Shown: positions 1 through 17,182 of the stretch, piece after piece
How the letters are laid out: every line of letters starts with the position of its first letter
Numbering within the stretch: position 1 is the stretch's first letter
Source: a virus
Lineage: Duplodnaviria > Caudoviricetes
Virus record (IMG/VR): IMGVR_UViG_3300031369_000003
Location: 1 to 55,132 of that record
Strand: one strand, 5' to 3'
Length of the DNA: 55,132 nucleotides
Notes under the pieces: generated by a model
The model's input: the letters and a program-made list of their open reading frames with translations, nothing else
Database searches by the model: none
Told to the model about the DNA's origin: nothing
Position numbers and translations under genes: made by a program

Positions 1-48
1 GTCGGTAAATTTTGACCCATTTTCTCATAATGGGGGGGATAAATAAAT
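1..48. other. Probable cos region, continuing from the right end of the window (about 54880-55132)
   Basis: Non-coding ends join between the HNH gene and terS/terL in late-operon order; G7 run at 32-38; usual position of cos in HK97-like phages. Confidence 0.5.
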
Positions 49-354
49 CTATCTATGAGGTAAAATATATGCTGCATTCTCAGGGAGTGCATTCAATCCG
101 AATGATAACCTTACATGATTAATAGTTAATTCATTGGGCGTTAAGGAAGCGACAATAAGATTTCGATAGTGGTTAACCTCTTGCATTAATTTTTTATTGT
201 CATCAACCAATCCCTTGGCATCCTCATATCTAACCCATTCGCCATCTTTTTCAAGCAAAGTTGTAAATCCTTTACCATCGTTTCTTCCGTATGTTTGGTG
301 TGTAATTATCCTTGGTAAAGAGCAATTCATGTCATATATATTATATCTATTCAT
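49..354 (-). CDS. Hypothetical phage protein
   Basis: ORF with RBS, in line with the late operon. Confidence 0.6.
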   Translation of the reverse strand: MNRYNIYDMNCSLPRIITHQTYGRNDGKGFTTLLEKDGEWVRYEDAKGLVDDNKKLMQEVNHYRNLIVASLTPNELTINHVRLSFGLNALPENAAYILPHR

Positions 355-369
355 CGTTCCCTATCACTC

Positions 370-1053
370 CTATTCAGTATACTTATCCCACCACTCATCT
401 ATATATCTAATATACTCATCCTTAATTTTCCGTCTATCTTCATCCATTTCCAGCCTAGCAATAGCCTCATCCCTGCTGCACTCACAGTATATTAACTCAG
501 CCCCTAAATCATCGGCCAACTTCTCCCGCTTAAATTTATCAGGCAATCCTCCTATGACCCAAGCCGTATTCCACCTACCGAATCTCGTCTTGACGTTATC
601 AATTAGATAATTATAGACGCCTATTATATTGCTTATTAGTTGATCAGGTTTATCATATGCAGGTAACAATGTTATGGCCTCGTATAGTCTATCCATATCA
701 ACTACTATGTCATTGCGTTCCTTGGATTGTATTACATAGCTTGTCTTGCCACTACAAGGACAACCATAGATAATATAGACTTGCTTAGTAACCTTTCCGA
801 ATCGCTTATGCTCTTTGTTATGGCAATCTCTACAGATAAGCTTAACGTTATCAGGATTGAGCGACACCATCACGTCATCAACATTATCAATCGTCAATGC
901 TATAGGTGTATGATGCAGCGTCACATCTTTAGGTGTTGCTATTACCCTACCGCATTGTTCGCAGACAAGGCCGCGTTCGGCAATGATTGACGCTCTAAAT
1001 CTTATCCACTTTTGGCTTGCATAGAATTGTTGTAATATTGCCGCTCTAGCCAT
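370..1053 (-). CDS. Packaging-associated HNH endonuclease fused to a P-loop (AAA/kinase-like) domain
   Basis: CEQC...HH...N...CRDCHNKEH HNH motif followed by Walker A GCPCSGKT. Confidence 0.85.
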   Translation of the reverse strand: MARAAILQQFYASQKWIRFRASIIAERGLVCEQCGRVIATPKDVTLHHTPIALTIDNVDDVMVSLNPDNVKLICRDCHNKEHKRFGKVTKQVYIIYGCPCSGKTSYVIQSKERNDIVVDMDRLYEAITLLPAYDKPDQLISNIIGVYNYLIDNVKTRFGRWNTAWVIGGLPDKFKREKLADDLGAELIYCECSRDEAIARLEMDEDRRKIKDEYIRYIDEWWDKYTE

Positions 1054-1056
1054 TGC

Positions 1057-1521
1057 TTACCAATCCTTTGCCGCTTCCATTTGTTTCCTTAGCTGTAATT
1101 CCTGTCGTTTAAAATCAAGCAGCGCCCGGTCGTTAGTATAATGTTCCGAATCTTTATTTTTGAGTAATATCGCAGCCGCCCCGACATCAGCAGGCATATG
1201 CTTTTTGGTTTTCTCAGTATATTTCGTTTCCTTTCCATCCTCGTCTTTGATGTAAGTTTTAATCTCTTCATATTCATATCCTAATGCTCTTTTGGCTAAT
1301 GCGTTTTCCAGCTCAGTAATAAAAACTTCCTTGCCTTTCTTTATGGCCTTAAGAAATTCGGGATATTTAATTTTATACTCGTTTGCCGTATTGATACTAA
1401 TTCCAAGATTTTTCCATATCTGTTCCTCGGTTAGCCCATCACGGCACCATTTTTCAACAAGTAACAATTTATCTTTAACTTGATTCCACTTGCTTTTTCT
1501 GCCCCTCATTTTATCACCCAC
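1057..1521 (-). CDS. HTH protein of the terminase-small-subunit-like type
   Basis: DGLTEEQIWKNLGIS HTH; ENALAKRALGYEYEE...PADVGAAAILLKNK pattern. Confidence 0.65.
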   Translation of the reverse strand: MGDKMRGRKSKWNQVKDKLLLVEKWCRDGLTEEQIWKNLGISINTANEYKIKYPEFLKAIKKGKEVFITELENALAKRALGYEYEEIKTYIKDEDGKETKYTEKTKKHMPADVGAAAILLKNKDSEHYTNDRALLDFKRQELQLRKQMEAAKDW

Positions 1522-1525
1522 TTAA

Positions 1526-1723
1526 CTAATTACCCAACGAATTGTAATAAGCTTGCCCATATTGTTTAATGAACTTTTCTTTTCGTGAATTGATCCTATT
1601 GACTACTTTTTGAATTCGTTTTGATTTCAAAACATTATCATTTCGCCATTCATCAGCTTCCCATGCCGCCAAATGCGCAACTAAATAATTTATTCGATTT
1701 GGTTGATAACCCATTTTAATCAC
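1526..1723 (-). CDS. Hypothetical protein
   Basis: ORF in late operon with RBS. Confidence 0.5.
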   Translation of the reverse strand: MIKMGYQPNRINYLVAHLAAWEADEWRNDNVLKSKRIQKVVNRINSRKEKFIKQYGQAYYNSLGN

Positions 1724-1869
1724 CCCTGTTTATCTTTGTTTTTGATAATCACCAGTTTTATTGCCTCGTTTGGCCTCCAATAAAACAGGTTCCAGGTTGC
1801 TGGTACCGATACTTTCATTTAAACCACCTCTAAAACAAGTTCGATATCTACCATCCTCCAAAATCCCAA

Positions 1870-1902
1870 TAAAAAAACAGCTATCTCTCGATAACTGTCT
1901 AA
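1870..1902 (-). terminator. Intrinsic terminator-like hairpin at the end of the structured late leader
   Basis: Minus strand agacagttatc-gaga-gatagctgttttttt. Confidence 0.65.
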
Positions 1903-1904
1903 TA

Positions 1905-2220
1905 ATTTTTATAGCGTCGGATCATAGCAATTAGCTCCCCGGCGCGGTGTTTTTTTGAGCAGTGCTGTCTCAAACAGCCATGTTTTTTAATCGCTTTCTC
2001 AGCCGCTACCTTTTTATAGGCAACACGGAAAACCTTCTGCCCAAATTAAAAGCCCACCAGTTTAAGCCTATACCCTATAATCAATTTGTGGGCGTGTTAA
2101 CCATCGCAAGCCCCTAAGTCGCCTTATGGACTTACCGCTCAATAGTCAATGACGTTTTGAGCACTCACTAGGCGGAGTCAACCGGCCCATTTGTTTCGCC
2201 CCGGCTCGGGACGGATACAA
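1905..2220 (-). ncRNA. Candidate structured non-coding RNA in the late leader, family not recognised
   Basis: GC-richer stretch with no ORF in the track and several hairpins, between putative late promoter and terminator. Confidence 0.45.
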
Positions 2221-2244
2221 TATCTTTTAGAACTGCACAATCAC

Positions 2245-2300
2245 ACTATATACCTTAAAACCAGCAAAAACAAGGTTAAACAGTCTCATTTAGTCTCATT
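2245..2300 (-). promoter_or_regulatory. Putative late promoter with activator-binding direct repeat (atgagact x2)
   Basis: Plus strand agtctcattt-agtctcattt from 2282; -10-like TATAGT near 2245-2250 on minus; no good -35, consistent with ArpU/RinA activation. Confidence 0.6.
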
Positions 2301-2319
2301 TTTGCAAAAAACAACCGGG

Positions 2320-2745
2320 TTAATCCCGGCCTCTTAACTCAACGATATACTCCTTGATTTTACTGTCCTCGTCATCACTGAGATAATATTGGCGACGTTT
2401 ACGTCCTGTTGCCGGTCGCCCAGAACCTTCTCGCGAACCGCCCCAAGAGCGTAATATATCATCCTGATAGGCTAACAATAACATTTGCATGGATAATCGT
2501 TTGCGTTGTCTTGCGTATTCGTTTTGTTGGTGACATTCGTCTACAAATTTAGTTTTACTCATATACGTTTCAATTTCTTTGACCTTCTCAATGTACGCTT
2601 GTAAATATTCTTCCTTTTTTTCTTTTGAAAGTCCAATTGACCTGCTAGTTTTCAAATTATTTATCTCAAAATATCCATGTGGGATATCTAGAGACAAAGA
2701 CCAGTTTTTAATCAAGTGCTTCATTAAGCTAATAAATTTTTCCAT
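2320..2745 (-). CDS. Protein with C-terminal AT-hook-like plus RHH-like DNA-binding tail
   Basis: C-terminus WGGSREGSGRPATGRKRRQYYLSDDEDSKIKEYIVELR. Confidence 0.65.
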   Translation of the reverse strand: MEKFISLMKHLIKNWSLSLDIPHGYFEINNLKTSRSIGLSKEKKEEYLQAYIEKVKEIETYMSKTKFVDECHQQNEYARQRKRLSMQMLLLAYQDDILRSWGGSREGSGRPATGRKRRQYYLSDDEDSKIKEYIVELRGRD

Positions 2746-2746
2746 T

Positions 2747-3034
2747 TCATTTTTCCTCCTTTTTAAGATTAAATAATTTGTACTGAAACAGGATTTCTTT
2801 AAATAATTTGTCTATGTAATAAGTTTCATATTCTCGATGTTCAATCCACCATTTTGAATCTGTAGTGCTTTCTAATATAGCTTGTACTGCCAGCATTTTA
2901 TCGTATGATGTGCTTTCCTTTTTCATATCTAGAAAGTCCTCATACTGCACAAGAATGTTAATTCTAATAGTTTTAGCCCAAGCAATTTGTTTTTCGCTCC
3001 CGGTCAATTCTGGTAATACTTTCATTTTTAACAA
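2747..3034 (-). CDS. Conserved mobile-element hypothetical protein (GSEKQIAWA motif)
   Basis: LPELTGSEKQIAWAKTIR and SKWWIEHR motifs; RBS aaggag. Confidence 0.7.
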   Translation of the reverse strand: MLKMKVLPELTGSEKQIAWAKTIRINILVQYEDFLDMKKESTSYDKMLAVQAILESTTDSKWWIEHREYETYYIDKLFKEILFQYKLFNLKKEEK

Positions 3035-3057
3035 CTCCTTTTCCTTATCTTGATATC

Positions 3058-3087
3058 ATTGTATCATATTTATTGTTGATTGTCAAC
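3058..3087 (-). promoter_or_regulatory. Sigma-A promoter TTGACA-N17-TACAAT with inverted repeat over -35
   Basis: -35 at 3081-3086, -10 at 3058-3063; GTTGA-ttg-TCAAC at 3075-3087. Confidence 0.75.
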
Positions 3088-3146
3088 TACATATTTCAAG
3101 TTTATATAGGTTTTTAGCATTATCTTTTATAAAAAAAATAACCGGG

Positions 3147-3335
3147 TTAATCCCGGTCGTATCTCTTTAACGCTTCTTCGGTTATTACCCAATCTCTTCC
3201 GATTTTATAAACCTCGTCCGAATTGAACTTTTTACGATGAACATCCTGCCTTATACGACCTTTTGTCATCCCTAGTTGCCGTTCAGCTTCGGCTATGGTT
3301 ATAATATTATTATCTTTCATCATTCGCCTTCCCAA
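3147..3335 (-). CDS. Small HTH DNA-binding protein, last gene of the IbrAB cassette
   Basis: ITIAEAERQLGMTKGRIRQ...KIGRDWVITEEAL, excisionase/MerR-like HTH. Confidence 0.8.
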   Translation of the reverse strand: MGRRMMKDNNIITIAEAERQLGMTKGRIRQDVHRKKFNSDEVYKIGRDWVITEEALKRYDRD

Positions 3336-3949
3336 GCCATTGAAAATTCTTTATCACCAAACATTTCTGCCAATCCGGTGATCTGTTTAAGCCTCAACAC
3401 CTCATCGGCATCCATACCTAGTTCTCTGGCGATTTTTTCATCATTCCAGTTTCGCCGTGATAACTCAACCACAATATCGCTCATTGCAGTTACAACGTGT
3501 TTCCCCCTAGCTCTGTTGTGTCGAATGGTTGACGCTATTCTATCAGCCTTTTCTTTCCTCTCGTCGTTAATAGTGGTTACTGGCAAATATCCTTTAATTC
3601 GTTTTTTTACTTCTTCGCATTCTTTACCCACTCGATTTCGATGGAACCCGTCAACCACTTCGATATGGTTGTCGTCTTCCCAAAAACCAACTATGGGTTG
3701 AGTATATCCGTCTTCACTTATCGAATGTTGCAAAAGCTTCATTTCAGGAGGCGCCACGGTGTTAGGGTTATAATCGTTTGCTTCCACTTGATCGGCCTCA
3801 ACCCAAATGACGCAATCAACCGGTTCGTTAACAAACGGGCTTATTTCATGTAATTTTATTCTGACTGCATTTAAAGCCGCAATTTTATTTTTCTCTGGTA
3901 ATTTATTCAGCTCATTTACTAACGCAGACAACGCATCACTGACTCCCAT
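3320..3949 (-). CDS. ibrB: IbrB-like ParB/Srx-domain protein
   Basis: ANDYNPNTVAPPEMKLLQHSISEDGYTQPIV...VVDGFHR...STIRHNRARGKH. Confidence 0.88.
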   Translation of the reverse strand: MGVSDALSALVNELNKLPEKNKIAALNAVRIKLHEISPFVNEPVDCVIWVEADQVEANDYNPNTVAPPEMKLLQHSISEDGYTQPIVGFWEDDNHIEVVDGFHRNRVGKECEEVKKRIKGYLPVTTINDERKEKADRIASTIRHNRARGKHVVTAMSDIVVELSRRNWNDEKIARELGMDADEVLRLKQITGLAEMFGDKEFSMAWEGE

Positions 3950-5133
3950 TTCTGTTTCCTCCGTTTCATGATTTTTAAATATTTATCGTATGCCTCGCTT
4001 TTTGTCATGGTAAAAGATAATCCTTTACACCAATAATCATTTTTTAACAATGATTTACAGATCCTGCGCCATGATGGAACTTTCTTCCCAGCTTCGTCTT
4101 TTGCGTCAGCTTCATCAGGTATCCCATTCGGATAGCCCCGATCATACCACCACTTTAAAAATACCGCTATCTTATTTTCAAAATGATTCCTTGATTTATC
4201 TGGCATACTACATAATAATAATTTGGCAAACGATTCCCAAGTATGCCCATCAGGTTTATTGATTTTGATATTACCCAAAACATTTCCGGATTCTCGGACG
4301 TATAACGCCCCAGAATTGGCACCATTAACTCTAGCGACCACTTTACCCCATGTCTCTGGCTCAATAAGATGAAACAGCCAGAGCCCCTTCCGTTGATCGT
4401 CGCCGTAAGGTTGACATATCCTCATTTGGTGGATTGACAACCCAGCTAACTGCATATAATCGTAAAGTTTGTTGTAAGGCTTATTAAATTTACCGTTGTA
4501 CGTCCAAATGTCTTGCGTTTTCCAGTCATAGATCGGATAAATGTTGTAAAGTCCGTCGCCGCACCAAGTGGTATAGCCTTTGTCGTCGAATTTACTTTTA
4601 TCTCGAACTATTGTCCTGTAACGATTCAAAGATTCATCTGCACGAATTCCAACAAAGCAAGCCGTTAAATCGCCGCCTCCGTACCATTTTCCGAATTGTG
4701 GTACAAATTCCTCAAACTCCATTTTGTAGTGATAAAACGGAAAATAGCTTTGGTCTGTAATTGCCATTTCGGGCGGCTGTCTAATCCAGTCTTTTCCCGG
4801 TTCCCAACATGTCCATTTTGGTTCATACTGGCTAACGGCGTTTCGCAATGCAATAGGTAACGCAACCCAATAAGGTTCGATATGATCTTCATATAGCTTA
4901 TACATATACTGTATATGCTCAATGGTTATTTTGTATTGACCCTCTAAGTCCAAAAGCAAAACTCCAACTTTTTGATTTCGCTTTATTGCTTCGTCCATTA
5001 CCAAATGGAGCATAACGGATGAGTCTTTCCCGCCGCTAAAACTAACATAAATTTTCCTAAACGTGTCAAACGTCCATTCTATTCGCTGCTTTGCAGCTTC
5101 ATAGACATTTATTCCAATCGGGATTTTAGCCAT
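3919..5133 (-). CDS. ibrA: IbrA-like PAPS-reductase-family (PP-loop) protein
   Basis: SFSGGKDS PP-loop, GIRADESLNR, YPIYDWK, MRICQPYG, PSWRRICKSLLKND. Confidence 0.88.
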   Translation of the reverse strand: MAKIPIGINVYEAAKQRIEWTFDTFRKIYVSFSGGKDSSVMLHLVMDEAIKRNQKVGVLLLDLEGQYKITIEHIQYMYKLYEDHIEPYWVALPIALRNAVSQYEPKWTCWEPGKDWIRQPPEMAITDQSYFPFYHYKMEFEEFVPQFGKWYGGGDLTACFVGIRADESLNRYRTIVRDKSKFDDKGYTTWCGDGLYNIYPIYDWKTQDIWTYNGKFNKPYNKLYDYMQLAGLSIHQMRICQPYGDDQRKGLWLFHLIEPETWGKVVARVNGANSGALYVRESGNVLGNIKINKPDGHTWESFAKLLLCSMPDKSRNHFENKIAVFLKWWYDRGYPNGIPDEADAKDEAGKKVPSWRRICKSLLKNDYWCKGLSFTMTKSEAYDKYLKIMKRRKQKWESVMRCLR

Positions 5134-5501
5134 TCTTTTACCTCCTCCTCGTCAATTTTGAAAACCTTCCAATCCACAACTTTACAAAAATATCGTTGTT
5201 TGTTATCTTTAACATCATAAATTTTATTATCGCCGAGAACATACTCGGCATATATCCCGCGCGACCCTTTGGAATTGGCTTGGGAATAATCTTTTTTGAA
5301 ACGCAAAAACTCACGTTTGTATTTATATTTAGGGTCGAATCCGGTAATCTCGGCAACCCATCCAGAAGATGGCATCCCACCGAATACAGCCGTTCCGGTT
5401 CCGGGTATTAAATCGTTGCCCAATCTAGTCCATATCCTCATTTCCTGCACAACGTTGTCCCCTATTAATTCAATTTGTAAAACCGCTTTCAAGAAAATCA
5501 C
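5109..5501 (-). CDS. Hypothetical protein translationally coupled to ibrA
   Basis: Overlaps ibrA start; WVAEITGFDPKYKYKREFL motif. Confidence 0.7.
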   Translation of the reverse strand: MIFLKAVLQIELIGDNVVQEMRIWTRLGNDLIPGTGTAVFGGMPSSGWVAEITGFDPKYKYKREFLRFKKDYSQANSKGSRGIYAEYVLGDNKIYDVKDNKQRYFCKVVDWKVFKIDEEEVKEWLKSRLE

Positions 5502-5799
5502 TCCGTTTTAGCTTCGTTTCTCCGATTATATTCGCATACCAATTATAAGTTGAAACACAATTTTCAAACTGATTCCACAAATCAGAATGATCATTGTTAC
5601 TAGTTGAATGAACAAACTTTCCAGTAGTGATGCATTGGAGTAAATTTTCTGTGGAGATTCTTTCTCGAAGCATTTTATACATTGTTATGGCTTTGCTAAG
5701 ATTAAATTTCATTTTAATCAAAATTAGTTTCATTTGTTTGTCTGCAATATTATTCGAATCAACCATTCCGAATATAGTTTGATATAGCAATGTGTTCAC
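5470..5799 (-). CDS. Hypothetical AT-rich cargo protein
   Basis: ORF in cassette operon with RBS aagaagg. Confidence 0.55.
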   Translation of the reverse strand: MNTLLYQTIFGMVDSNNIADKQMKLILIKMKFNLSKAITMYKMLRERISTENLLQCITTGKFVHSTSNNDHSDLWNQFENCVSTYNWYANIIGETKLKRSDFLESGFTN

Positions 5800-5850
5800 C
5801 TTCTTTTTTAATAAATATGTGATTTAAGGATTACCACAAACCATCTAAAC

Positions 5851-6249
5851 TTATTTAAGTTTAATTTCGCCAGCTTTGATTTTACAATCGATGCAAGTAA
5901 TCATTAGCGGGTCGAATTCTTGATTCGGAGTTATCGACCAATAGGGGTTATAAAACAAATCGGCACAAGTTTCTTTTCCACATGCCGGGCAGGTAACTTT
6001 TTGATTGTGAGTCAATCCAGCAATTTTAACCTCCACCACGCTCCCATCCGTCCGACATTCAATTTCCAAATCCGGATTCCCCGGATACTCTTTTGCGATT
6101 TTATCCATATCAACTTTTTCACACTCATCGGAGCAATAACCATCATAAATTTTGCTGGTGTCGGGTTCCTCTTTAAAAAACTCCTTGAACTCATAAGGTT
6201 TTCCTACAACTTTCCCACAAATTTTACATTTTACTTTTAACATTGTCAT
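5851..6249 (-). CDS. Cys-rich (Zn-finger) protein, first gene of IbrAB cassette
   Basis: CKIC, CSDEC, CPAC, CIDC motifs. Confidence 0.7.
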   Translation of the reverse strand: MTMLKVKCKICGKVVGKPYEFKEFFKEEPDTSKIYDGYCSDECEKVDMDKIAKEYPGNPDLEIECRTDGSVVEVKIAGLTHNQKVTCPACGKETCADLFYNPYWSITPNQEFDPLMITCIDCKIKAGEIKLK

Positions 6250-6284
6250 TTTAATTTCCCCTTTCGTTTTCTCTTTATATTTAC

Positions 6285-6315
6285 ATTATAGCATTGTCAC
6301 GTTAGCGTGACAATG
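6285..6315 (-). promoter_or_regulatory. Sigma-A promoter TTGTCA-N17-TATAAT with perfect 10-bp-arm palindromic operator
   Basis: CATTGTCACG-ttag-CGTGACAATG at 6292-6315 covers -35 and spacer. Confidence 0.8.
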
Positions 6316-6349
6316 GGTCTTTAGACCTATTTATAAAAATAAGCCGGAA

Positions 6350-6637
6350 TCACCGGCTATAATGTCTGTTTTCAGCATCCAATGCGGCTTTAACGGCTGG
6401 ATAATGCGGATTATCTGGTGTTACCCTAATTTTGTCGCGTTCGTGATAGTCCGTTGTGGTATCGCTACTATTAATAACGTTTAACCCTTCAATTTTTGGA
6501 AATCGGCCATAATCTTTTGCATAAATTGTAATCGTCCCGGCGGGTTGATTGATCAGCTCCCCTGGTGAGTATCGCGCCCGGTATAGTTTGCCGTCAAGCT
6601 TTATGCCGTTCCACAAAAATTTTAACATTTTAATCAT
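6350..6637 (-). CDS. Hypothetical protein
   Basis: ORF whose stop lies in a CCGG hairpin terminator. Confidence 0.7.
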   Translation of the reverse strand: MIKMLKFLWNGIKLDGKLYRARYSPGELINQPAGTITIYAKDYGRFPKIEGLNVINSSDTTTDYHERDKIRVTPDNPHYPAVKAALDAENRHYSR

Positions 6638-6690
6638 CCTTTCTATTTTCAGTCCCCTTCTTAGGATTTCGGATTTTTACTCTAATTTAG

Positions 6691-6942
6691 TTATTTTTCA
6701 ACTAGTCCCCAAAAATTCATCACGCACCGTTGAGGATTGATATTTTTTTGACTGATTAACCACGCCGGAATCCAAATGATACGATTACCAACTTCGTTTT
6801 GTTCGCCGAGTATACATTGAGATTTCGGGAACCACTCGTGAGTTACGGTATTAATACCGTTGAGGCTAAAGTCAAAACAATACGCTTTATCTGTTTCTCC
6901 ACTGGGAGCGAAACCGTATTCGTAATATTTTTTCATTTCCAA
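6691..6942 (-). CDS. Hypothetical protein directly downstream of the twister ribozyme
   Basis: ETDKAYCF...WFPKSQC...IWIPAWL; RBS aaggtg. Confidence 0.7.
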   Translation of the reverse strand: MEMKKYYEYGFAPSGETDKAYCFDFSLNGINTVTHEWFPKSQCILGEQNEVGNRIIWIPAWLISQKNINPQRCVMNFWGLVEK

Positions 6943-6954
6943 ATCACCTTTTCC

Positions 6955-7013
6955 GCCGGGCTTGTGACCGGCTTTGCCGCATTAGCACCGGTTACCCGGT
7001 GTCACTCTGCGAT
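6955..7013 (-). ncRNA. Twister ribozyme, circularly permuted (type P5-like)
   Basis: Minus strand CGCA GAGUG A CACCGG guaa CCGGUG C UAA UGCG GC aaa GCCGG UCACAAGC CCGGC: P1, P2, P4, UAA cleavage triplet and both pseudoknots present. Confidence 0.9.
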
Positions 7014-7017
7014 TAAT

Positions 7018-7287
7018 TTACGCTGACTGGTCTTTTTCCCACGAACGTTCGAACTCATCAGTTAATTTTTTACCTTCTTTAATCGTTGTATCTAATGCAT
7101 TTAATACGGCATTCATAACAGCTTCATACTTTTCAAGGTAAATATATTTTTGTTGAACTTCTTTCGGAGCATCTTCAATCCAAATAGGTTTTTCCATATC
7201 TTTCGTTAATTCATTCCATTCATGATGGGCCATTTGGTAGTTTGTTACCGCCTCAATTATACAATCTTGTTTTTTTGTTGTTTTCAT
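7018..7287 (-). CDS. Hypothetical small protein
   Basis: First gene after the 7324-7352 promoter; RBS aagggga. Confidence 0.7.
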   Translation of the reverse strand: MKTTKKQDCIIEAVTNYQMAHHEWNELTKDMEKPIWIEDAPKEVQQKYIYLEKYEAVMNAVLNALDTTIKEGKKLTDEFERSWEKDQSA

Positions 7288-7323
7288 TTCAAATATCCCC
7301 TTTCGTTTCTTGACTACATTTAT

Positions 7324-7352
7324 ATTATAACGTATATACTTCTATACGTCAA
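7324..7352 (-). promoter_or_regulatory. Sigma-A promoter TTGACG-N17-TATAAT with ACGTATA boxes
   Basis: -35 at 7347-7352, -10 at 7324-7329; inverted ACGTATA pair. Confidence 0.8.
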
Positions 7353-7480
7353 TAGTTATTTCAAAGTATTTTCATTTATTTTTTTTATGCCATTTACCTG
7401 CCGTTTTAGTTTACTTCTATATATATACATTTTTGCCTTGCCAAAATCGGCCATCCGGCAACCCGCGACATATTGTCATT

Positions 7481-7544
<64 letters not shown>

Positions 7545-7549
7545 AAAAT

Positions 7550-7578
7550 TTGACGCATAAACGTATATATGATATAAT
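7550..7578 (+). promoter_or_regulatory. Sigma-A promoter TTGACG-N17-TATAAT of the RHH gene
   Basis: Near-consensus with TGn extended -10; ACGCATA-a-ACGTATA boxes. Confidence 0.8.
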
Positions 7579-7603
7579 TAGAAAAAACATTTGGAGGTCT
7601 ATT

Positions 7604-7759
7604 ATGCCAAAATTTACAACTTATTTGCCCGACGAAATGATTAAATACCTACGCGACAAGTCGCACGAAGAAACGCAGGATGGGAAATATACCAGCGCGG
7701 CCAACATCATTCAGCGTTTGATCGCATCTGACATGGAAAAACAAAAAAGCAAAAAATAG
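7604..7759 (+). CDS. Ribbon-helix-helix (CopG/Arc-like) repressor
   Basis: MPKFTTYLPDEMIKYLRDKS...SAANIIQRLIASDM; GGAGG RBS before ATG at 7604. Confidence 0.8.
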   Translation: MPKFTTYLPDEMIKYLRDKSHEETQDGKYTSAANIIQRLIASDMEKQKSKK

Positions 7760-7807
7760 TTTCTACATGCATTTTTAAAATTTATCAAAAAGCTTTAAAA
7801 TAAATAC

Positions 7808-7836
7808 TTGACGTATAAACGTATACATGGTATTAT
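7808..7836 (+). promoter_or_regulatory. Sigma-A promoter TTGACG-N17-TATTAT with ACGTATA-a-ACGTATA boxes
   Basis: Near copy of the 7550 promoter. Confidence 0.8.
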
Positions 7837-7863
7837 AGTAGTAGGAAATGAAATTGAAGGAGA

Positions 7864-8106
7864 GTGTTGAAAATGATGAATTGGTATCAAATAGACAGGC
7901 GCAAGGGCAATGGTACTTCAATTAATTATCAGATGGTTCGTTCTACCAGCCTCAGGGCTGCGATAACGGAATATTTGAATGAAGATGGTGATTATGCAAA
8001 AGATTGGACAATTACGCGTAACAAGTTTGGACATACATTATATTTAACCGCACGTTGCCCGGAATTTACCGAGGAATATGTTGAAGTTTGTAAGGTGGTT
8101 GGATAA
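7864..8106 (+). CDS. Hypothetical small protein
   Basis: RBS aaggag; follows promoter. Confidence 0.65.
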   Translation: MLKMMNWYQIDRRKGNGTSINYQMVRSTSLRAAITEYLNEDGDYAKDWTITRNKFGHTLYLTARCPEFTEEYVEVCKVVG

Positions 8107-8188
8107 TTAGCAGAGAGCGTCCTGCGAATAGTAGGACGTCGCCAGTCGGAACCAACGTAGTAGTAAAAAAATGAAGGAGTAATTGAAG

Positions 8189-8353
8189 ATGACATATGAA
8201 CGGTTCTCCCAACTCATGCAGGAAATATTCGATGAAAATCTTCCTGAAGATGAAAAATGGTTAGCAGAAAATAAAACAGCGGATCATGCTTCAGCCGTTA
8301 GGATTTACAATGGATTTATACGTGCTTTTCGTGCCGGTCGGAAACCGGCGTAG
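8189..8353 (+). CDS. 54-aa hypothetical protein missing from the ORF track (MTYERFSQLMQEIF...RAGRKPA)
   Basis: aaggag RBS; open frame ending TAG TAG TAG TAA TAG. Confidence 0.7.
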   Translation: MTYERFSQLMQEIFDENLPEDEKWLAENKTADHASAVRIYNGFIRAFRAGRKPA

Positions 8354-8392
8354 TAGTAGTAATAGCCGGTCAACCCGGCGGAGGAGGGAAAC

Positions 8393-8860
8393 ATGGAAAA
8401 ATTAAGAGAGATAATCAAAAAACAATGTGAAGAAATGGGATGCAAAGCTCGTTTGTCAAAGTTAAAATACAACGATGGGGTGCAATTAAAGTTAGAGCAG
8501 TTTAGAAAGATTAATAATATTGATATCAAATACTCTTTTGATATGCTTAATGCTTGGTATGCAGGTTGGCACAATACGCATTGCGCATTGATCCTCGCAC
8601 AAGGTAAAGGGGCCCCTCATTTATATGAGCATCGCTTCGATGCGGAAGGCGAGGCCAAAAAACGGTTAGAAAATTATCCCGATGCAAATTTTAACATTAT
8701 GTTTTGCAAAATAGGCCAAAAAATTTTTTATTATTTGCGCGAAGATTGTAACTTGGAATGTGATATGTTTGACACGGATAGCTTTGTAACTGCAATACAT
8801 CGATCATATCCCGGAATTTCTGAGGAGGAACGTTGGCTGAATTCGCGGGGCTGCTTGTAA
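8393..8860 (+). CDS. Hypothetical protein
   Basis: ggaggagg RBS; 155 aa. Confidence 0.7.
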   Translation: MEKLREIIKKQCEEMGCKARLSKLKYNDGVQLKLEQFRKINNIDIKYSFDMLNAWYAGWHNTHCALILAQGKGAPHLYEHRFDAEGEAKKRLENYPDANFNIMFCKIGQKIFYYLREDCNLECDMFDTDSFVTAIHRSYPGISEEERWLNSRGCL

Positions 8861-8921
8861 AACCTAAAATCCCGTCAATACAGCCCCACCAGCGCCTAGT
8901 TGGTATAGTAGTAGTAGTAGT

Positions 8922-8945
8922 AAAAACCGCCTTTCGGCGGTCTTT
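8922..8945. terminator. Bidirectional terminator between island and late activator gene
   Basis: aaaaaccgcc-tttc-ggcggtctttt between convergent genes. Confidence 0.75.
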
Positions 8946-9490
8946 TATTGTATTAGTAGTTGCATTTTTTGTAGGGCGGAATCTCGTTTTCTAAAACATT
9001 CTGCGCGACTGTAATGCACCATCCCTGCTATCTTGCTCCAGTTATATCCTTTTATATAGTAGTACTCCACAATGGTTTTTTCCTCCGCCGTTAACTGATC
9101 GAGCATAATGTCAATCACTAAAATATCATTTTGTACCCTGCTCAAATCGCACTTTAGCTTTTTAATCGTCGCATCTTGGTCTAACAGTTTTTGCACTTTT
9201 TTGAGTACCGGATCGCTTGTCCCTGTCCCATGCGGCATACCGTCATTGTTTGCCGCAGCTAAAGCTGATCGTCGATTCAGTTCCTCCTCTAGTCTTTTGC
9301 TAATAATATTTTTGGCAGTCAACATATCATTGTAAGCCCTTAGAGTTGCCTTGATATCCATGCCGCTGTCAAGCTCAACCATGATACAATTATCCATTTT
9401 AACATTGAGGTTACCGTCAATGTCTGCCATAAATCGCCGCTCTATTAGATTATATAATTTGGTTTTTATCATCTTTGCCCTCCTTGACAT
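8945..9490 (-). CDS. ArpU/RinA-family late transcriptional activator (true start may be internal)
   Basis: DGMPHGTGTSDPV and C-terminal sigma-region-4-like LDQLTAEEKTIVEYYYIKGYNWSKIAGMVHYS. Confidence 0.85.
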   Translation of the reverse strand: MSRRAKMIKTKLYNLIERRFMADIDGNLNVKMDNCIMVELDSGMDIKATLRAYNDMLTAKNIISKRLEEELNRRSALAAANNDGMPHGTGTSDPVLKKVQKLLDQDATIKKLKCDLSRVQNDILVIDIMLDQLTAEEKTIVEYYYIKGYNWSKIAGMVHYSRAECFRKRDSALQKMQLLIQ

Positions 9491-10839
9491 TTGTAATTAT
9501 ATTTTTAAAAATAGTCAACATTTCTATCAGCGTTTCGTGAAATTCGCGAGTGATTATAAATGACGTGGCGATAAAACACCCAAACAATCCAAACCAAAAC
9601 AATATAAATCCGTATAATCCTCCCCAGAAAACGACTCCAAACGATACGGCCATAGTTGATAATAATAGTAAAAAGTAATACATTAGCGCCCTCCTTTGCT
9701 TCTTTTTACCTTATATCCCTGACTTTTTAATTCCATTATGCAAAGTTCCAAATATTTACAAGCCGGTTGACCATATCCGCCATAGCAAATCAATGGGCCG
9801 TGAGTTACTACAATGTTTGTTTTATATTTTCCAGCATTACATTCGTTCATTTTTAATACCTCCTTAATATCTCAGCCATGGTTCCGGTGGTTGAATTCAC
9901 TCTCCTTTTGGTTCAAAGCCCCAGCAACAACCATTTTTATTATGTTCGATGCAAAAATCCAAATGAATTTCTCCGGACTGGTCTTTGATAAAATCTCTTT
10001 TGTATTGCCAAAAATATTTATCACATTGATTTGTTATATCATCCATGCTAAAACCGCTATTTGAAATGGGGGTTGCAAATTGATTATTTTGATAATGCTT
10101 ACATTCCTTACATATTGACCATCTACGTTTTGCTAACCAATATAGTAGTCTAATCATCCTTTATCACCTCCTAAAAATTCCATCATCTTTTTCGATAACT
10201 CTGTTTCTTTTCCATAACAATTTTCGATTTCTTTCACCGCTTGTTCTATCATCTTTTCCGCCTCCAAATTATTACTACACCTATTGTAACAACAACACAG
10301 CCTATTACTCCCGCCAAATTCGGCCCAATTTCAATCATTTCAGCCCTGCCTCCTTCAAATGTCTATCAATACAAGCTTTTAATGATTTATCCCGAAACGG
10401 TATCCAGCACAACATTAATCGTTTTGCTTGTTCGTCCCAGTCTCTATGCGCCGCTTCAATAGCTGCCTTTTCTGCGTCTGTATATTGCTTTTTCATTTCC
10501 CGGCTCCTTTCAAACAAAACCCTGATTTTGTTTAGTTGTGTACCAATTGCCGTTCACGGTATTAAGTTCAAACGTTTCTCCGTGTAGCGCCCCATATAAT
10601 TCGATTTCCGCGTCCGTACAATTTTTCAATCTTCCTGCAAAAACCTCATTAATTTCGCCCAATGTTAGATTTTTTTCATTGAGATCGATTATCTCGCCGT
10701 CGATTGTCAAAGTCGCCCATCCATAGCAATCGCAAAGTCTGTCAGCGTTAATAATCGTTGTCTGTTCTGGACTGCAATTCAAACAACCGTAAAATTGTGG
10801 ATTTTCAATCGGTTTGTTTTTCATCACATATAACCCCAT
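9450..10839 (-). other. Cluster of small early hypothetical genes (9450-9683 membrane, 9897-10157, 10335-10517, 10510-10839)
   Basis: Tightly packed co-oriented ORFs with RBSs. Confidence 0.55.
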
Positions 10840-11180
10840 ACCCTTAATTGTTTTATCGCGTCATCAATCCCCTTACAAACCGCCGTTTCCCATCCGTAAG
10901 CCGCTAATATATTCAGCCAAAAACGTTGATTATCCGATACCTTACTGCCCTTAACCCGTTTCAATTCAATCGCCGCGCCAACTGATTCTGGGCAATTCGG
11001 GGGTTTATCGAATATAATCACGTCCGGAAATCCCGGCTTCACTCCTAACCGCTTTCTTTTGGCTAAATACTGTGGTTTTGCTTTGGTTTCGTTCGGGACG
11101 TGTGTCCACAACAACCTTAGGCTATCTAGTAACTGCGCTAATGCTTCCTGATCCTGTTCCTCTTTTGCTATTATCTGCAT
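10824..11180 (-). CDS. VRR-NUC domain nuclease (resolvase-like)
   Basis: HVPNE...GVKPGFPDVII...IELKR...SDNQRFW. Confidence 0.85.
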   Translation of the reverse strand: MQIIAKEEQDQEALAQLLDSLRLLWTHVPNETKAKPQYLAKRKRLGVKPGFPDVIIFDKPPNCPESVGAAIELKRVKGSKVSDNQRFWLNILAAYGWETAVCKGIDDAIKQLRVWGYM

Positions 11181-11267
11181 CCTTGCCCCTCCTCTCCTTC
11201 TCTAAATCAATATCTATAATCATTGCTACAAGCAAGTTTTGTTTTAGTATTCGTTTACTTGGTGATT

Positions 11268-11543
11268 TTATTTGCATGGTTCGCAATTTGTAGCCTCCTC
11301 GTCACCCATAATTTCATCAAGCCATTTATCGCAACATGTAATACAGGTATAACATTGTTTAGGCCCATCCAAAAAGCAAGTTTCATATAAGGCATTTTCA
11401 CCAATTTTAATTGTTTCGCCGCAATTACAACATTCATGGTCTTTTCGGACTTTTACAACTTTTTGAGTTTCATATTGGGTATCTTCATCAGACCCGTAAA
11501 ATTCAGTTGATTCATAGATTTTCTTTGAGTATTTCATTCCCAT
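11268..11543 (-). CDS. Zn-finger hypothetical protein
   Basis: RKDHECCNCGETI...CITC. Confidence 0.65.
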   Translation of the reverse strand: MGMKYSKKIYESTEFYGSDEDTQYETQKVVKVRKDHECCNCGETIKIGENALYETCFLDGPKQCYTCITCCDKWLDEIMGDEEATNCEPCK

Positions 11544-11554
11544 CCCCCCAATTC

Positions 11555-11929
11555 CTAATTTTCGTAAATGTTGCCGATGATTTCAAATAGTTTTCTGCAG
11601 CTTGGTTCCATTGCTCCAGGAATACTAATAAGCCAAGTACATAATCCACCTTTTCCGGGTAATGGCTCTATTTTAAAGCCCGTAGTATTCCATTTAATTA
11701 TTCCGATACAATCCTGATTCCAAAAACCTTCGCCTGGTTTATAAACATAATGAATAATATCCCCCTCACAAATCTCCTTGCCGTTTTTGTCATGTAGGCC
11801 GGTAAATTGCATTAATTCAAGCCGATCACATTCAAACAAACGTAAATTATATATTGATTTTAATTTATCCCAATCTATCATTTTTTTGTGTTTTTTATCC
11901 CACGCCCTAAATTTAATCTCTCTGCTCAT
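11555..11929 (-). CDS. YopX-family protein
   Basis: REIKFRAWDK...MQFTGLHDKNGKEICEGDII...EIIGNIYEN. Confidence 0.9.
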   Translation of the reverse strand: MSREIKFRAWDKKHKKMIDWDKLKSIYNLRLFECDRLELMQFTGLHDKNGKEICEGDIIHYVYKPGEGFWNQDCIGIIKWNTTGFKIEPLPGKGGLCTWLISIPGAMEPSCRKLFEIIGNIYEN

Positions 11930-12305
11930 TTCGCCCTCCTAACAGCTCGGGGTTATCCCATTTGTTTCCAACTAATGTCATTATTTTATTCCAAAAACTA
12001 AGCCCAATATAGCTCGAACTGCCAATTTGTTTACCCATAATTGCTATATCGTTCCAAACAACTTGATATTTGATATTTGAATCGCCAAGATTAAATATGT
12101 CACCTTCAAACCACCATATACCATTAATCTCAACGCCCATACCAACGGTTTCTGATCTCACCCGATACGCCCACGGCATACCAGCACTGTTTGAGATATA
12201 AAATCCTTTTTCTGGTTGGCCTTTATACCCTTTTGATTCAGATAAAAGTCCGAAACACCATTCGCCATTAATTGTCTCCCCGCGAAATCTAACCATTTCA
12301 TTCAC
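11913..12305 (-). CDS. YopX-family protein
   Basis: RFRG...ETVG...FEGDI...VGNKWDNPELL. Confidence 0.8.
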   Translation of the reverse strand: MNEMVRFRGETINGEWCFGLLSESKGYKGQPEKGFYISNSAGMPWAYRVRSETVGMGVEINGIWWFEGDIFNLGDSNIKYQVVWNDIAIMGKQIGSSSYIGLSFWNKIMTLVGNKWDNPELLGGRNEQRD

Positions 12306-12919: not shown

Positions 12920-13679
12920 TTATTGTTGTGGAGTCGTAGCCTCCTTTGCTTTTCGCAATGCCTCCGGATTGCCTTTTCGATTGCTAAATGGATTCTTACC
13001 CATCCGAAATAGATATAACGGGCAACGCTCGACGGTACAATTCCTTACCTCGTCCTGCTGCTGGCAAGTACAATCCATACATTTGTTTCTAATTGCTTTT
13101 CCTAATACACTCATATCAATATCACCTCATATTTATTATTTTTACACGTAAATGCAATGGTTTTTGCAGGTTAATGCATCTCGGCTTGTATTCGTACCCT
13201 TTAAATTAAATCAGGATTAAATCGGTAAATTAAGCTCTATTCCAGAAATTGCTTTTAGTATTCCGATACTTCCGCTCTATCTTCAATCTCTTGGGCTACA
13301 TTTGTAAAATCAATCGATGCTAGAATTGCCTTAATTTCCTGCTGTTTCTCCAAATAATTCGTTCCATAACTGGCAGGCCCGATATAGTCTGAAATTGTTT
13401 TTGTTACCGCTTGACGTATCATTTCGGCATCAATTTCAACGTCAACATCAACATTGATTATCATTTAAATCATCCCTTTCATTTATTAAACGTCTGCCCG
13501 CTCGACCTTTCTGCTTTTGCCACAAAGTATTTCATCAATTTCAAATGATTTTCTACCGTTTCCCCTGCTGCCAATGCGTCTAGATAAATACCGACTATTT
13601 TTCGTAAATTTCGCAGTGGTTCGATTTCTGCTGTCAGCTCTGCGATGCGTTGTGTTTTATGGCTATTGATTGTTTGCAA
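12920..13679 (-). other. Small hypothetical genes (12920-13114 Cys-rich, 13255-13464, 13479-13679)
   Basis: Co-oriented ORFs. Confidence 0.55.
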
Positions 13680-14542
13680 GTTGCTGATTTTATCGCTGAT
13701 TTCTTTGGTCGTAATTGCTCCTCATTAAATAAATTTGGTTGTTCCATTTCCTCATGTTGCGGAATAAATAACATTTCTTGTGCTGCTTCTTTTTCGAATC
13801 TTCTACATCCGTCATCAAAATATTCTGGATCAATTTCGCATCCCCAAAAGTCAAAACCCATTATTCTGGCAGCAATTCTGGATGATTGTGATCCTAAATG
13901 GGTATCTAGGATTTTATCACCCGGTTTGGCATAGTTTTTCAGTTGCCAAATATATAGAGCAACGGGTTTTTGGGTTGGATGAATGCGAGTTTCTTTATGT
14001 TTCATATCTTGTTGAAGCATGCCATTCCATTTGTAGCGAAAAATTTTAACACTTTCAATTAAATCAATGCTCGCCAATTCGCAATCACTAAAAGGCGTAT
14101 TGTCATTGACTTTATCCCAAACAATCCTGCCAACCGGTTGCAAAAAATTATAATAATTGCATCCCCAAATTATTTGATGGTCAGAAGCTCTTTTTAATTC
14201 ATCATAATATTTTCGAGTGGGAATTCCAGAATCCCAAAACTTAACATTACCTTTGTTTTCTTTACGAGCATTATTAACCCGACTGTTAAAATAGTCATCC
14301 TTGGCAATTCCCTTAAAATACGGCGGGTCGACTATCGCCAAATCAAAATATTTATCTGGAAACTTTGCCATAAAGTCCATGCAGTCACAACATTCAACGA
14401 TTGATGTTGGGGTCATTTTTTTAATCCTCTCTAAATAATCGCACTTTTCGCAGTAAACCCATATATTATCAAGCTGAAATAATGGTCTGCCACATTGACA
14501 TTTTTGAGTTAGTTTTATGATTGTGTGGCCGTTGCGGTTCAT
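13634..14542 (-). CDS. Orphan N6-adenine/N4-cytosine DNA methyltransferase, beta class (internal start at 14416 possible)
   Basis: DPPY, HPTQKP, ILDTHLGSQSS motifs. Confidence 0.9.
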   Translation of the reverse strand: MNRNGHTIIKLTQKCQCGRPLFQLDNIWVYCEKCDYLERIKKMTPTSIVECCDCMDFMAKFPDKYFDLAIVDPPYFKGIAKDDYFNSRVNNARKENKGNVKFWDSGIPTRKYYDELKRASDHQIIWGCNYYNFLQPVGRIVWDKVNDNTPFSDCELASIDLIESVKIFRYKWNGMLQQDMKHKETRIHPTQKPVALYIWQLKNYAKPGDKILDTHLGSQSSRIAARIMGFDFWGCEIDPEYFDDGCRRFEKEAAQEMLFIPQHEEMEQPNLFNEEQLRPKKSAIKSATCKQSIAIKHNASQS

Positions 14543-16145: not shown

Positions 16146-17182
16146 TCATTTAATCTCCTCCTCCGCTTTCCGCAACCAATACTCCCTTAATTCCTCAGCC
16201 ACGCGTTCCCGCTGCCCTGGTTCTGTCAGGTTGACTAAAACCGATTCGCTTATCAATTCGAAAGCTCGTTCCAGCACTTTGTTTTTCTGAAATAGTTCGT
16301 CTTTTTCGGTCAAAAGTTGATATTCGTCAAGGTTGGTCATTCACTCACCCACTTCCAATAAACAGTAATTTCAAAACAAAAAATTATGAATTTAATTTCG
16401 CATATAGAATTTATCCGGCACCAGCCGAACCCAAAGGCAATCGCTCCGGATTGTTTCCCTAAAGTTTGTCGACAATATATCTCTGCTTGTTTCATTCATT
16501 TGCCCGCTTTCTCAAAATCTTTTCCCACAAATATCACAAATTTGGCATTCTGGCTGCATCACACATTCGCCGGGAATGTAGCTATACTCAGTATGATTTA
16601 TTTTGTGTCCGCAAGTTGGTTTAAACCGTTCAAATCGCTCCTTGTGCCTTTTCTGCTTATAACCGCATTTGATATGCATATGCCTATCAAAACCGCATAT
16701 TGTCACTTCAAAATCGCAATCATCAAATTCTTTACAAAAATGTCTTTCGTAAAAATACCGCTGCCCTTTTTCAATTTTTCTGCCGCAAATGTCACAAACA
16801 TGATCTTTACGGGCTTTTCTAATCTTCACTCAATCACCTTCATTCGGATAAATATTGACAGCATAGCCGCCTTTATGGTCATTTGTAATTACCATTTTGT
16901 GGCCTGACTCGTCGATCGCTTTAACAACTCGGTAACCCGTTAAAACAATGCCAATAATCATCCCGGTGATTAAGCCAACAAGTAGCAGAAACATTAGTGT
17001 TCACCTGCTTTCTCATTAACCGCTTCAACAATCAAATCCGCCAATTCTCCATATCGGTTTTCTTTCCAATCAACTCCATTGCAACCGATTAAAATCAATT
17101 CATTACCAAATTTGATATAGTGAGCTTCTGAATAAGGATAATTGTTTAAATAATCAGTATAAATTACATGCTCTAGTTTCAT
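16146..17182 (-). other. Small hypothetical genes (16146-16340, 16512-16829 Zn-finger, 16994-17182)
   Basis: Co-oriented ORFs. Confidence 0.55.

Follow-up and report, generated by a model that had tools for sequence, protein, structure and literature searches.

Why should 6.6 kb of DNA stand between the late-regulator-like gene of a tailed phage and the candidate late promoter that this regulator might serve? The window in which this question arises is the whole of an IMG/VR virus record (IMGVR_UViG_3300031369_000003; 55,132 bp, classed as linear, estimated completeness 78%), and the interval, hereafter the island, holds 15 open reading frames (ORFs) arranged in four transcription units, A to D, between the regulator gene and the candidate late site. 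Our answer, to which as a whole we give slightly better than even credence, is that this is a hypervariable accessory island of a temperate tailed phage, built of four self-contained units that carry self-regulated cargo for conflict. The parts of this answer differ in strength. That the island is an autonomous and variable set of cassettes is very likely; that its units regulate themselves is plausible and moderately probable, most of all for units B and C; and that the cargo serves conflict or counter-defence is a tentative proposal, drawn from the architecture and from two cargo associations. The island is thus an accessory hotspot akin to morons and to operons of the acr-aca type (anti-CRISPR and anti-CRISPR-associated genes), which are kinds already known. 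Its features, from the regulator gene to the late site, are the following:

8945-9490, minus strand: late-regulator-like gene, the final gene of the early block; Ltr superfamily-like, with a C-terminus resembling sigma-70 region 4
8926-8941, both strands: GC hairpin that separates unit A from the convergent regulator gene, with a T-run on each side
7550-8860, plus strand: unit A, in which P7550 precedes the ribbon-helix-helix (RHH)-like gene (7604-7759) and P7808 precedes orf80 (7864-8106), orf56 (8183-8353) and orf155 (8393-8860)
7550-7578 and 7808-7836, plus strand, and 7352-7324, 6313-6285 and 3086-3058, minus strand: the five near-consensus sigma-A promoters
7836-7844, 8157-8165, 8350-8361 and 8906-8920, plus strand: (GTA)3-5 runs
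7502-7543, plus strand: (GTA)14 microsatellite between divergent promoters
7324-7352, minus strand: P7352, promoter of unit B, with an ACGTATA-N6-TATACGT inverted repeat at 7330-7349
6342-7287, minus strand: body of unit B, with orf89 (7018-7287), the twister ribozyme, orf83 (6691-6942), orf95 (6350-6637) and a hairpin
6956-7011, minus strand: twister-P5 ribozyme (Rfam RF02684) in the spacer between orf89 and orf83
6342-6358, minus strand: hairpin terminator of unit B, with the TGA of orf95 in its loop
6285-6315, minus strand: P6313, promoter of unit C; its -35 element and spacer are covered by a perfect 10+4+10 palindrome (6292-6315)
3140-6249, minus strand: body of unit C, with orf132 (5851-6249; 10 Cys), orf109 (5470-5799), orf130 (5109-5501), the IbrA-like gene (3919-5133), the IbrB-like gene (3320-3949) and the HTH_59 gene (3147-3335)
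3140-3158, minus strand: hairpin of unit C, with a TAA in its loop
3035-3086, minus strand: P3086 with a short leader that is conserved, together forming the portable promoter-leader of unit D
2313-3034, minus strand: body of unit D, with orf95b (2747-3034; likely start 3025), orf141 (2320-2745) and a hairpin
2313-2331, minus strand: hairpin of unit D, with a TAA in its loop
2245-2299, minus strand: candidate activator-dependent late promoter, with two ATGAGACT boxes, a -10-like TATATAGT and no -35 element

The initial annotation had proposed that the interval is a variable hotspot, and the comparison with relatives supports this, gene content not being fixed among them. The close relatives are two IMG/VR contigs, L002 and L003 (the same two were recovered again from the metagenome collection), whose regulators are 80% and 85% identical, respectively, to that of the window and whose islands measure about 2.3 and 5.8 kb. 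Using ORF sets picked by hand from mechanical ORF lists, we found a homologue in L002 for two of the window's 15 island ORFs and in L003 for five, one of them by its tail only; counted from the other side, 2/8 island ORFs of L002 and 6/12 of L003 (two by tail only) are common with the window. All three phages carry orf95 as well as the RHH-like gene and the divergent promoters that go with it, and these two genes are all that the islands of L002 and L003 have in common. The window and L003 additionally share orf155, orf80 and the tail, orf155 and orf80 having homologues in L003 only, and the IbrAB-like pair is confined to the window among the three. Nucleotide homology between the window and L003 breaks at the unit ends (6628-6329, 3170-3132, 3108-3021 and 2445-2306). 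The orf155 homologue of L003 (10678-11147, minus strand) is itself split into overlapping ORFs of 57 and 132 amino acids, which may reflect a frameshift or an assembly error.

A broader baseline comes from distant relatives. Aligning the regulator with genome contigs gave no match, and with metagenome contigs it gave the two close relatives and 78 distant ones at about 30% identity. We kept the 39 of these 78 loci that had at least 5 kb downstream of the regulator and dropped the rest, bearing in mind that many of the 39 are near-duplicates from different samples. In 37 of the 39, an ORF of at least 380 amino acids begins 574-3361 bp after the regulator, the other two having no such ORF; eight out of ten such ORFs that we sampled are large terminases by Pfam, and two have no family. 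In the window, it is the small-terminase gene that begins 7.4 kb after the regulator. The expectation that activator sites normally lie right behind the activator gene is therefore sound, both by this short gap and by the pages of PMC3753634 that describe the Ltr activators, where the repeats are placed immediately distal to the activator gene. Directly past the regulator of the window (8861-8944) we saw no repeats of the ATGAGACT type. A megablast of window positions 1-12000 against GenBank phages gave no match, and among public sequencing runs the interval was found only in a DNA run labelled as salt marsh metagenome, from which the record may itself derive, and in no RNA run.

The two ends of the interval are essentially where the initial annotation had put them. 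A gene for a regulator does end at 8945, and its product matches two phage transcription-regulator families of PHROGs (phrog_36, E 1.1e-19; phrog_248, E 2.7e-10). The name ArpU-like, under which it had been introduced, is too precise: the strong matches are to uncurated PHROGs only, no family named ArpU is among its NCBIfam matches, and curated models failed to place it in the Ltr superfamily. Because it scores under the curated cut-offs of both Pfam Sigma70_r4 (19.2 vs 24.1 bits) and the NCBIfam RinA model TIGR01636 (17.6 vs 31.9), Ltr-superfamily-like is the safer label. At the other end, the repeats and the -10 element were located at about 2245-2300, 6.6 kb from the regulator, as had been described. 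The two boxes, at 2292-2299 and 2282-2289 on the minus strand, follow a 10-bp period and are the only copies of ATGAGACT in the window; the first stands 13 nt past the last terminator hairpin, and the -10-like TATATAGT follows the boxes by 29 nt. At least two copies were reached in 24/100 shuffles, so that the count by itself is not rare; their tandem layout is kept in L002. Searching IMG/VR for the 16-nt double-box pattern returned 20 stretches, among which the L002 contig alone is related, the others sharing nothing else with the window. As far as the Ltr phages (RinA, ArpU, LtrA-C) are described in those same pages of PMC3753634, the likeness extends to a regulator that ends the early or replication block and to terS promoters made of short direct repeats, with no good -35 element, ahead of packaging genes. 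In those phages the activator gene is followed at once by three 7-nt repeats; the window has two 8-nt boxes 6.6 kb away, and we read them as a candidate late promoter.

The autonomy of the units is suggested by their two ends. All of the five near-consensus sigma-A promoters that had been reported in the island were found, each upstream of correctly oriented ORFs; P7352 matches the consensus at 11/12 positions, and P6313 and P3086 at 11/12 with a TG. Sites of this quality are enriched: the island has four with at least 11/12 matches, compared to 0.26 +/- 0.51 in 200 dinucleotide shuffles, none of which reach four, and five when sites of 10/12 with TG are also admitted (0.43 +/- 0.65 in shuffles). 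The other 46 kb of the window also hold four sites with at least 11/12 matches, which makes the density of the island about seven times higher. On the minus strand, the units end in CCGG-type hairpins over the last stop codon, as had been described, with the stop in the loop at 2313-2331, 3140-3158 and 6342-6358. Three of the four minus-strand hairpin terminators of this type in the window lie inside the island, and two of the three stop-codon hairpin regions, that of unit D among them, are 85% alike over 34 nt. As for unit A, which runs opposite to the main direction of transcription of the phage, the hairpin at 8926-8941 is followed by a T-run on both strands and is thus probably a bidirectional terminator, closing both unit A and the regulator transcript.

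In the mechanism that we propose, each unit would be started by its near-consensus promoter of the host sigma-A type and closed by an intrinsic terminator. Since the promoters are of the host type, the units would need no phage factor, and since each would have a terminator, there would be no read-through into a neighbouring unit or into the late operon. The units would then fire upon DNA entry and later settle at a repressed level, independently of the early-to-late cascade. Repression would most likely come from one small putative DNA-binding protein per unit, acting on its own promoter through the overlapping repeats. The HTH_59 protein may bind the palindrome of P6313, the RHH-like protein may bind the ACGTATA repeats of P7352, P7550 and P7808, and the tail protein of unit D may act at the leader of P3086.

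Several observations bear on this autoregulation. The palindrome of P6313 was reached by none of 2000 shuffles, and the 7+6+7 inverted repeat of P7352 by 80/2000, so that a strong promoter overlapped by an inverted repeat, as in acr-aca operons, is found at both. Half of the ten ACGTATA copies of the window fall in P7352, P7550 and P7808, three promoters that are almost invariant in L002 and L003, and P7550 and P7808 are 83% alike. The HTH_59 gene, last of unit C, exceeds the cut-off of its Pfam family (31 bits vs 27). The model of the RHH-like protein consists of an unstructured N-terminus and two helices; Foldseek gave no match for it, and its best VIA match had Z 4.2, an RHH antitoxin coming only thirteenth (Z 3.5). 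Searches of PDB by sequence returned nothing meaningful for the RHH-like, tail and IbrA-like proteins. We also considered that the RHH-like gene and orf80 could form a toxin-antitoxin pair, and rejected it: there is a promoter between them and no toxin family was matched.

The ends of the units recur elsewhere, ahead of or behind different genes. The promoter-leader of P3086 occurs twice in L003 and once in L002, preceding different cargo. A 26-letter pattern built from these four copies (that of the window, two of L003 and one of L002) was found in eight IMG/VR stretches, six of them new, and in four Streptococcus genome contigs; the further copies include those of L026, L027, L028, L029, L031 and L032. 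As we designed the pattern ourselves, only similarity outside of it counts as independent support, and four Streptococcus-type loci do resemble the window beyond it, with 76-77% identity along about 100 nt; L029 has the tail protein in place of such a match. In these prophages, the promoter-leader is followed by a Phage_Gp111 gene (67.4 bits), an orf169 and an RHH_1 fusion (22.5 bits, cut-off 20.5). Genomes of Streptococcus suis and other streptococci (L114-L117; also L026-L031) have the promoter-leader next to a prophage integrase and to a 200-amino-acid protein with an apparently membrane-anchored N-terminus.

The opposite end is marked by the C-terminal tail of orf141 (WGGxREGxGRPATG...DDE..K.K..ELRxRD), in which a short strand and one helix follow the WGGxREGxGRPATG motif. 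In the window this tail ends unit D. L003 has it at the end of two units and L029 at the end of one; in L029, the promoter-leader is followed by other cargo and then by an 81-amino-acid protein with the same tail. Its homologues number four among 5.8 billion proteins, one being from Geosporobacter subterraneus. The last island gene of L002 ends in the same hairpin, and its C-terminus resembles, by eye, a different RHH. In the proposed mechanism, cargo would be exchanged between phages by recombination at conserved ends, the promoter-leader on one side and the tail and hairpin on the other. A candidate that failed was homology of the cargo itself: pairwise BLASTP found none between unit D and the Streptococcus cassette, and the sole link is weak, running through an orf95b homologue in which Phage_Gp111 is found.

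As for the cargo, the hints toward counter-defence are three: the IbrAB-like pair, the polyvalent-protein domain represented by orf95, and a repeat shared by three promoters as for Aca14. The IbrA-like protein matches DUF3440 (122.7 bits) and PAPS_reduct (64.3 bits), both above the Pfam cut-offs, while its partner is ParB-like with a ParB_N score below the cut-off (20.1 vs 26.3). In PHROGs the pair belongs to phrog_2302 (E 6e-87) and phrog_2159 (E 1.3e-72). The two genes overlap by 31 nt and keep the same order in annotated phages, as is expected of a true pair, and the pair is widespread, with 224 phage records, 48 of which cover at least 80% of the query. The pair is known from E. coli prophages and many phages, with the annotation "co-activator of prophage gene expression"; our literature search found no paper that establishes its biochemistry. 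The IbrA-like protein of the window is 43% identical to that of Clostridium phage phiCs5676-1 and 51% to that of Escherichia phage PhiR5_2. In three annotated phages the pair stands after the lysis genes or near antirepressor genes, whereas in the window it stands before the packaging operon, within unit C, whose promoter is palindromic and whose last gene is the HTH_59 gene; behind the pair in the two phages that we compared, no gene is homologous to this last one. The idea that the HTH_59 gene is a fixed third member of the system was thus discarded, the small genes after IbrB in those two phages being unrelated to it.

We regard the pair as a candidate for nucleic-acid modification. According to the portions of the BREX survey that treat them (PMC12839542), DndC-type enzymes act beside DndB, a partner of the ParB superfamily, and the IbrAB pair resembles that pairing. 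Similarly, phosphoadenosine phosphosulfate (PAPS) reductases occur in Aca-regulated operons, where they are proposed to modify DNA, in the sections of PMC13551039 that deal with them; an earlier study is cited there, according to which a phage PAPS reductase evades Dnd. The likeness to our unit C is drawn at the level of the PAPS reductase.

The second association is that of orf95, 86% identical in L002 and 82% in L003, which belongs to a family of 430 cluster representatives and could be the solo form of a domain of polyvalent proteins. Although orf95 itself matches no named LPD family, homologues are fused into large multidomain proteins, which is what defines a polyvalent domain: among 150 listed homologues, three of the ten longest fused ones carry hallmark domains (MuF_C with pentapeptide repeats; pentapeptide repeats alone; LPD25) and seven have no Pfam domain. 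Polyvalent proteins are proposed as early-phase conflict effectors in the part of PMC5512222 that concerns their role. In L002, a neighbour of orf95 matches phrog_1926, "released from the phage upon host infection". The 15 island proteins are all hydrophilic, and none has a stretch that resembles a membrane segment. In our reading, the cargo would most likely act in conflicts between phage and host, or between phages.

The comparison with acr-aca operons made by the initial annotation is apt in its logic, the units of the island likewise combining promoter, repeat, cargo and putative DNA-binding gene. The resemblance includes the strong promoter with an inverted repeat, small cargo of no assigned function and a small gene for a putative DNA-binding protein. 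By its description in PMC13551039, as far as that account goes, Aca14 is an RHH regulator that represses its own and a neighbouring operon, so that one regulator motif stands on neighbouring promoters, as ACGTATA does here on three. Unlike in acr-aca operons, the RHH-like gene leads its unit, and four units follow one another at a single fixed site and carry ribozymes.

Ribozyme punctuation had been part of the initial proposal, and ribozymes do recur, three twisters being found in two of the three islands. That of unit B matches all of the model (positions 1-58/58) at 62.5 bits, against a gathering score of 37.6 (E 1.1e-10), and its 3' end lies 5 nt ahead of the ribosome-binding site of orf83. 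The island of L003 has two copies (43.0 and 39.3 bits), one per strand and each before a cargo gene, and that of L002 has none at the gathering score. In the proposed mechanism, the twister would cut the transcript of unit B between its first and second genes and so uncouple the fates of the two halves. The closest known case is that of hammerhead ribozymes, which, in the relevant part of PMC3088659, flank varying genes, the anti-restriction gene ardA among them, in polycistronic transcripts of prophages. What the two cases share is a ribozyme that lies between the genes of a multi-gene transcript, beside genes that vary; the difference is that the ribozyme here is a twister-P5, in one copy per unit and with cleavage as a prediction, and because of this single copy the transcript would be split and no gene excised.

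Several of our own observations weigh against the reading of the island as a set of self-regulated conflict cassettes. Since there are only two close relatives, its variability is drawn from three genomes. The GC content of the island (0.34-0.40) is the same as in the rest of the window (0.33-0.47 elsewhere, about 0.37-0.40 in the flanks), and composition is therefore no sign of foreign origin. The claim of an operator-like repeat over each promoter holds for P6313 and P7352; at P3086, P7550 and P7808 the best inverted repeat was reached by 942, 1378 and 986 of 2000 shuffles, respectively, so each is singly at chance. Likewise, one small DNA-binding gene had been assigned to each regulatory unit, and this is clear for HTH_59. 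The RHH-like protein has a weak Arc-like match (phrog_2639, E 1.1e-4) and none in Pfam, and its gene is the first of unit A, whereas aca genes are usually last. The tail of orf141, last in unit D, matches no family, and the roughly 20 residues left after its predicted strand are too few for a complete RHH fold. No named Aca, Acr or anti-defence family was found for regulators or cargo in Pfam, PHROGs, NCBIfam or PADLOC, and the only similarities of the cargo to characterised proteins of defence or anti-defence, in searches of Pfam, PHROGs and PADLOC, are weak ones of the IbrA-like protein to BrxP (E 2.8e-7, residues 24-50) and DndC. The model of orf95 is confident (predicted local distance difference test, pLDDT, 86.6), and it has no solved look-alike (best Foldseek E 0.34; VIA Z 4.3). 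Searches with it in PDB, BFVD and VIA gave one uncharacterised phage protein (E 5.5e-4) and nothing above background among solved folds, and the ESM Atlas gave no usable match for orf155 or orf95. Finally, the link between regulator and late site is loosened by L003, where the tandem ATGAGACT layout is degenerate and a second RinA-like gene stands right after the island, directly before the small-terminase gene, so that the first regulator may not always fire the late promoter; and a conserved stretch at 1734-1820, described further below, could hold the real one.

With these points in mind, the alternative that survives best is that the units are classical morons serving the lysogen, expressed from the resting prophage and giving the host immunity to other phages or some other gain in fitness, and not aiding this phage against defences on entry; we consider it rather unlikely, and still the closest to our own reading. 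Morons, a concept from the lambdoid phages, are independent promoter-gene-terminator insertions of temperate phages, and the island shares this anatomy, its units having their own promoter and terminator and being present or absent at the same site between relatives. The phage is taken as temperate, since a 385-amino-acid ORF on the plus strand (26186-27343), in the position of a lysogeny module, is by its size and position a putative integrase. The Streptococcus-type promoter-leader, near an integrase and an apparently membrane-anchored protein, is a typical site of lysogenic conversion, and the IbrA-like gene shows a distant likeness to two components of defence systems, BrxP and DndC. However, PADLOC offers no defence family beyond those weak matches, all 15 island proteins are small or hydrophilic and without any stretch suited to a membrane or to secretion, and orf95 is tied by fusion to polyvalent proteins that are delivered with the virion. 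The island also departs from morons in its lack of a foreign GC signature, in the portable ends that its units share and in its own putative repressors.

A bolder view would make the island a recombination-ready platform of cassettes, comparable to an integron array without an integrase, with unrelated cargo held between two portable adapters (5', the promoter with its leader; 3', the tail, taken as DNA-binding, whose stop codon falls in the loop of the terminator hairpin) and counter-defence genes traded by homologous exchange even with distant Firmicute phages such as the Streptococcus prophages. This extension, which we deem unlikely, would also include the RHH-like protein as a hub regulator over several units, and the twisters and strand-specific (GTA)n as punctuation of dose at the RNA level. 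The (GTA)n runs of at least three units are only five in the whole window, all on the strand of unit A, and the (GTA)14 microsatellite is present in L003 and absent in L002. The runs stand at a promoter start and at gene junctions, and that at 8350 provides four in-frame stops after orf56.

It could also be that the interval is ordinary delayed-early or middle DNA, its genes for nucleic-acid metabolism and modification serving the phage's own replication or packaging from normal early promoters, and that the true late promoter lies near the packaging genes, nothing then being inserted between an activator and its site. We judge this improbable. It would account for the conservation of 1734-1820 in all three phages when the ATGAGACT site is found in two only, for the RinA-like gene directly ahead of the small terminase in L003, for the regulator missing the curated RinA and Sigma70_r4 cut-offs, and for the terminator at 1875-1900, which falls within the supposed late leader. 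It does not explain why gene content differs between close relatives, unlike that of core functions, why each unit has its own terminator, why unit A runs against the main direction of transcription or why 37 of the 39 distant relatives do without such an interval; and in other phages IbrAB occupies an accessory position after the lysis genes. That the promoter-like sites, repeats and hairpins are mere chance in AT-rich intergenic DNA is very hard to believe: the permissive promoter count of the island is unenriched (33 vs 28.3 +/- 4.3), three promoters have no significant repeat singly and two ATGAGACT copies are common in shuffles, but no shuffle reached the number of high-scoring sites or the palindrome of P6313, the ribozyme stands above its Rfam gathering score, and relatives keep promoters and hairpins while the cargo between them is swapped.

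If the island is indeed an accessory array of self-regulated conflict units, it would offer about a dozen small, uncharacterised cytoplasmic phage proteins as candidates for anti-defence screens, and these come ready grouped in units that are laid out much like regulated anti-defence operons. The promoter-leader, or the tail with its hairpin, can serve as search handles for further cargo lying between them. It would also mean that the link between activator and site, as known in staphylococcal and enterococcal phages, can stretch over 6.6 kb with insulation kept. Lastly, a twister placed between two genes of a short, well-bounded transcript provides a defined context in which to study this ribozyme.

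The rest of the window gives the setting of the island. The majority of its genes are on the minus strand, and the packaging-side features are these:

minus-strand gene order up to the island: structural and lysis genes, the plus-strand 385-amino-acid ORF, early genes, the regulator (8945-9490), the island
minus-strand gene order past the island: a long leader, a small ORF, the small terminase subunit, the HNH-ATPase gene
1057-1521, minus strand: small terminase subunit (phrog_309, E 2.1e-37)
370-1053, minus strand: HNH endonuclease joined to a C-terminal part that resembles an ATPase (phrog_4581, E 1.4e-47; Pfam HNH, 24.6 bits)
50776-52512: large terminase candidate, at the opposite end of the contig from the small terminase

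The HNH-ATPase gene lies directly downstream of the small-terminase gene. Because the large terminase candidate is found at the other contig end, the record is cut within the packaging region; we found no exact terminal repeat of at least 12 nt in the window.

Past the candidate late promoter, the 527 nt that lead to the first packaging-side ORF (1724-2250, minus strand) are predicted to fold stably (z -3.98, with 0/100 shuffles as stable) and contain the intrinsic terminator at 1875-1900. Rfam, searched at E values up to 1 over 1500-2400, returned no family for this region, which may serve as an antitermination leader or give off a small RNA at the terminator. Immediately ahead of the packaging-side genes, the 87 nt at 1734-1820 (minus strand) show about 80% conservation across the three phages, between flanks that differ. 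They include two AACCTG repeats and a hairpin whose stem has 10-11 bp, and might act as promoter, as packaging site or as RNA element. The slot past the late site also varies between relatives: L002 carries there (13230-14111) a tRNA gene and the gene of an Ant-like antirepressor (phrog_5817, E 5.2e-35), and L003 has its second RinA-like gene (16634-17020) and, further on (18779-18842), an int-alpA RNA scoring 53.8 bits.

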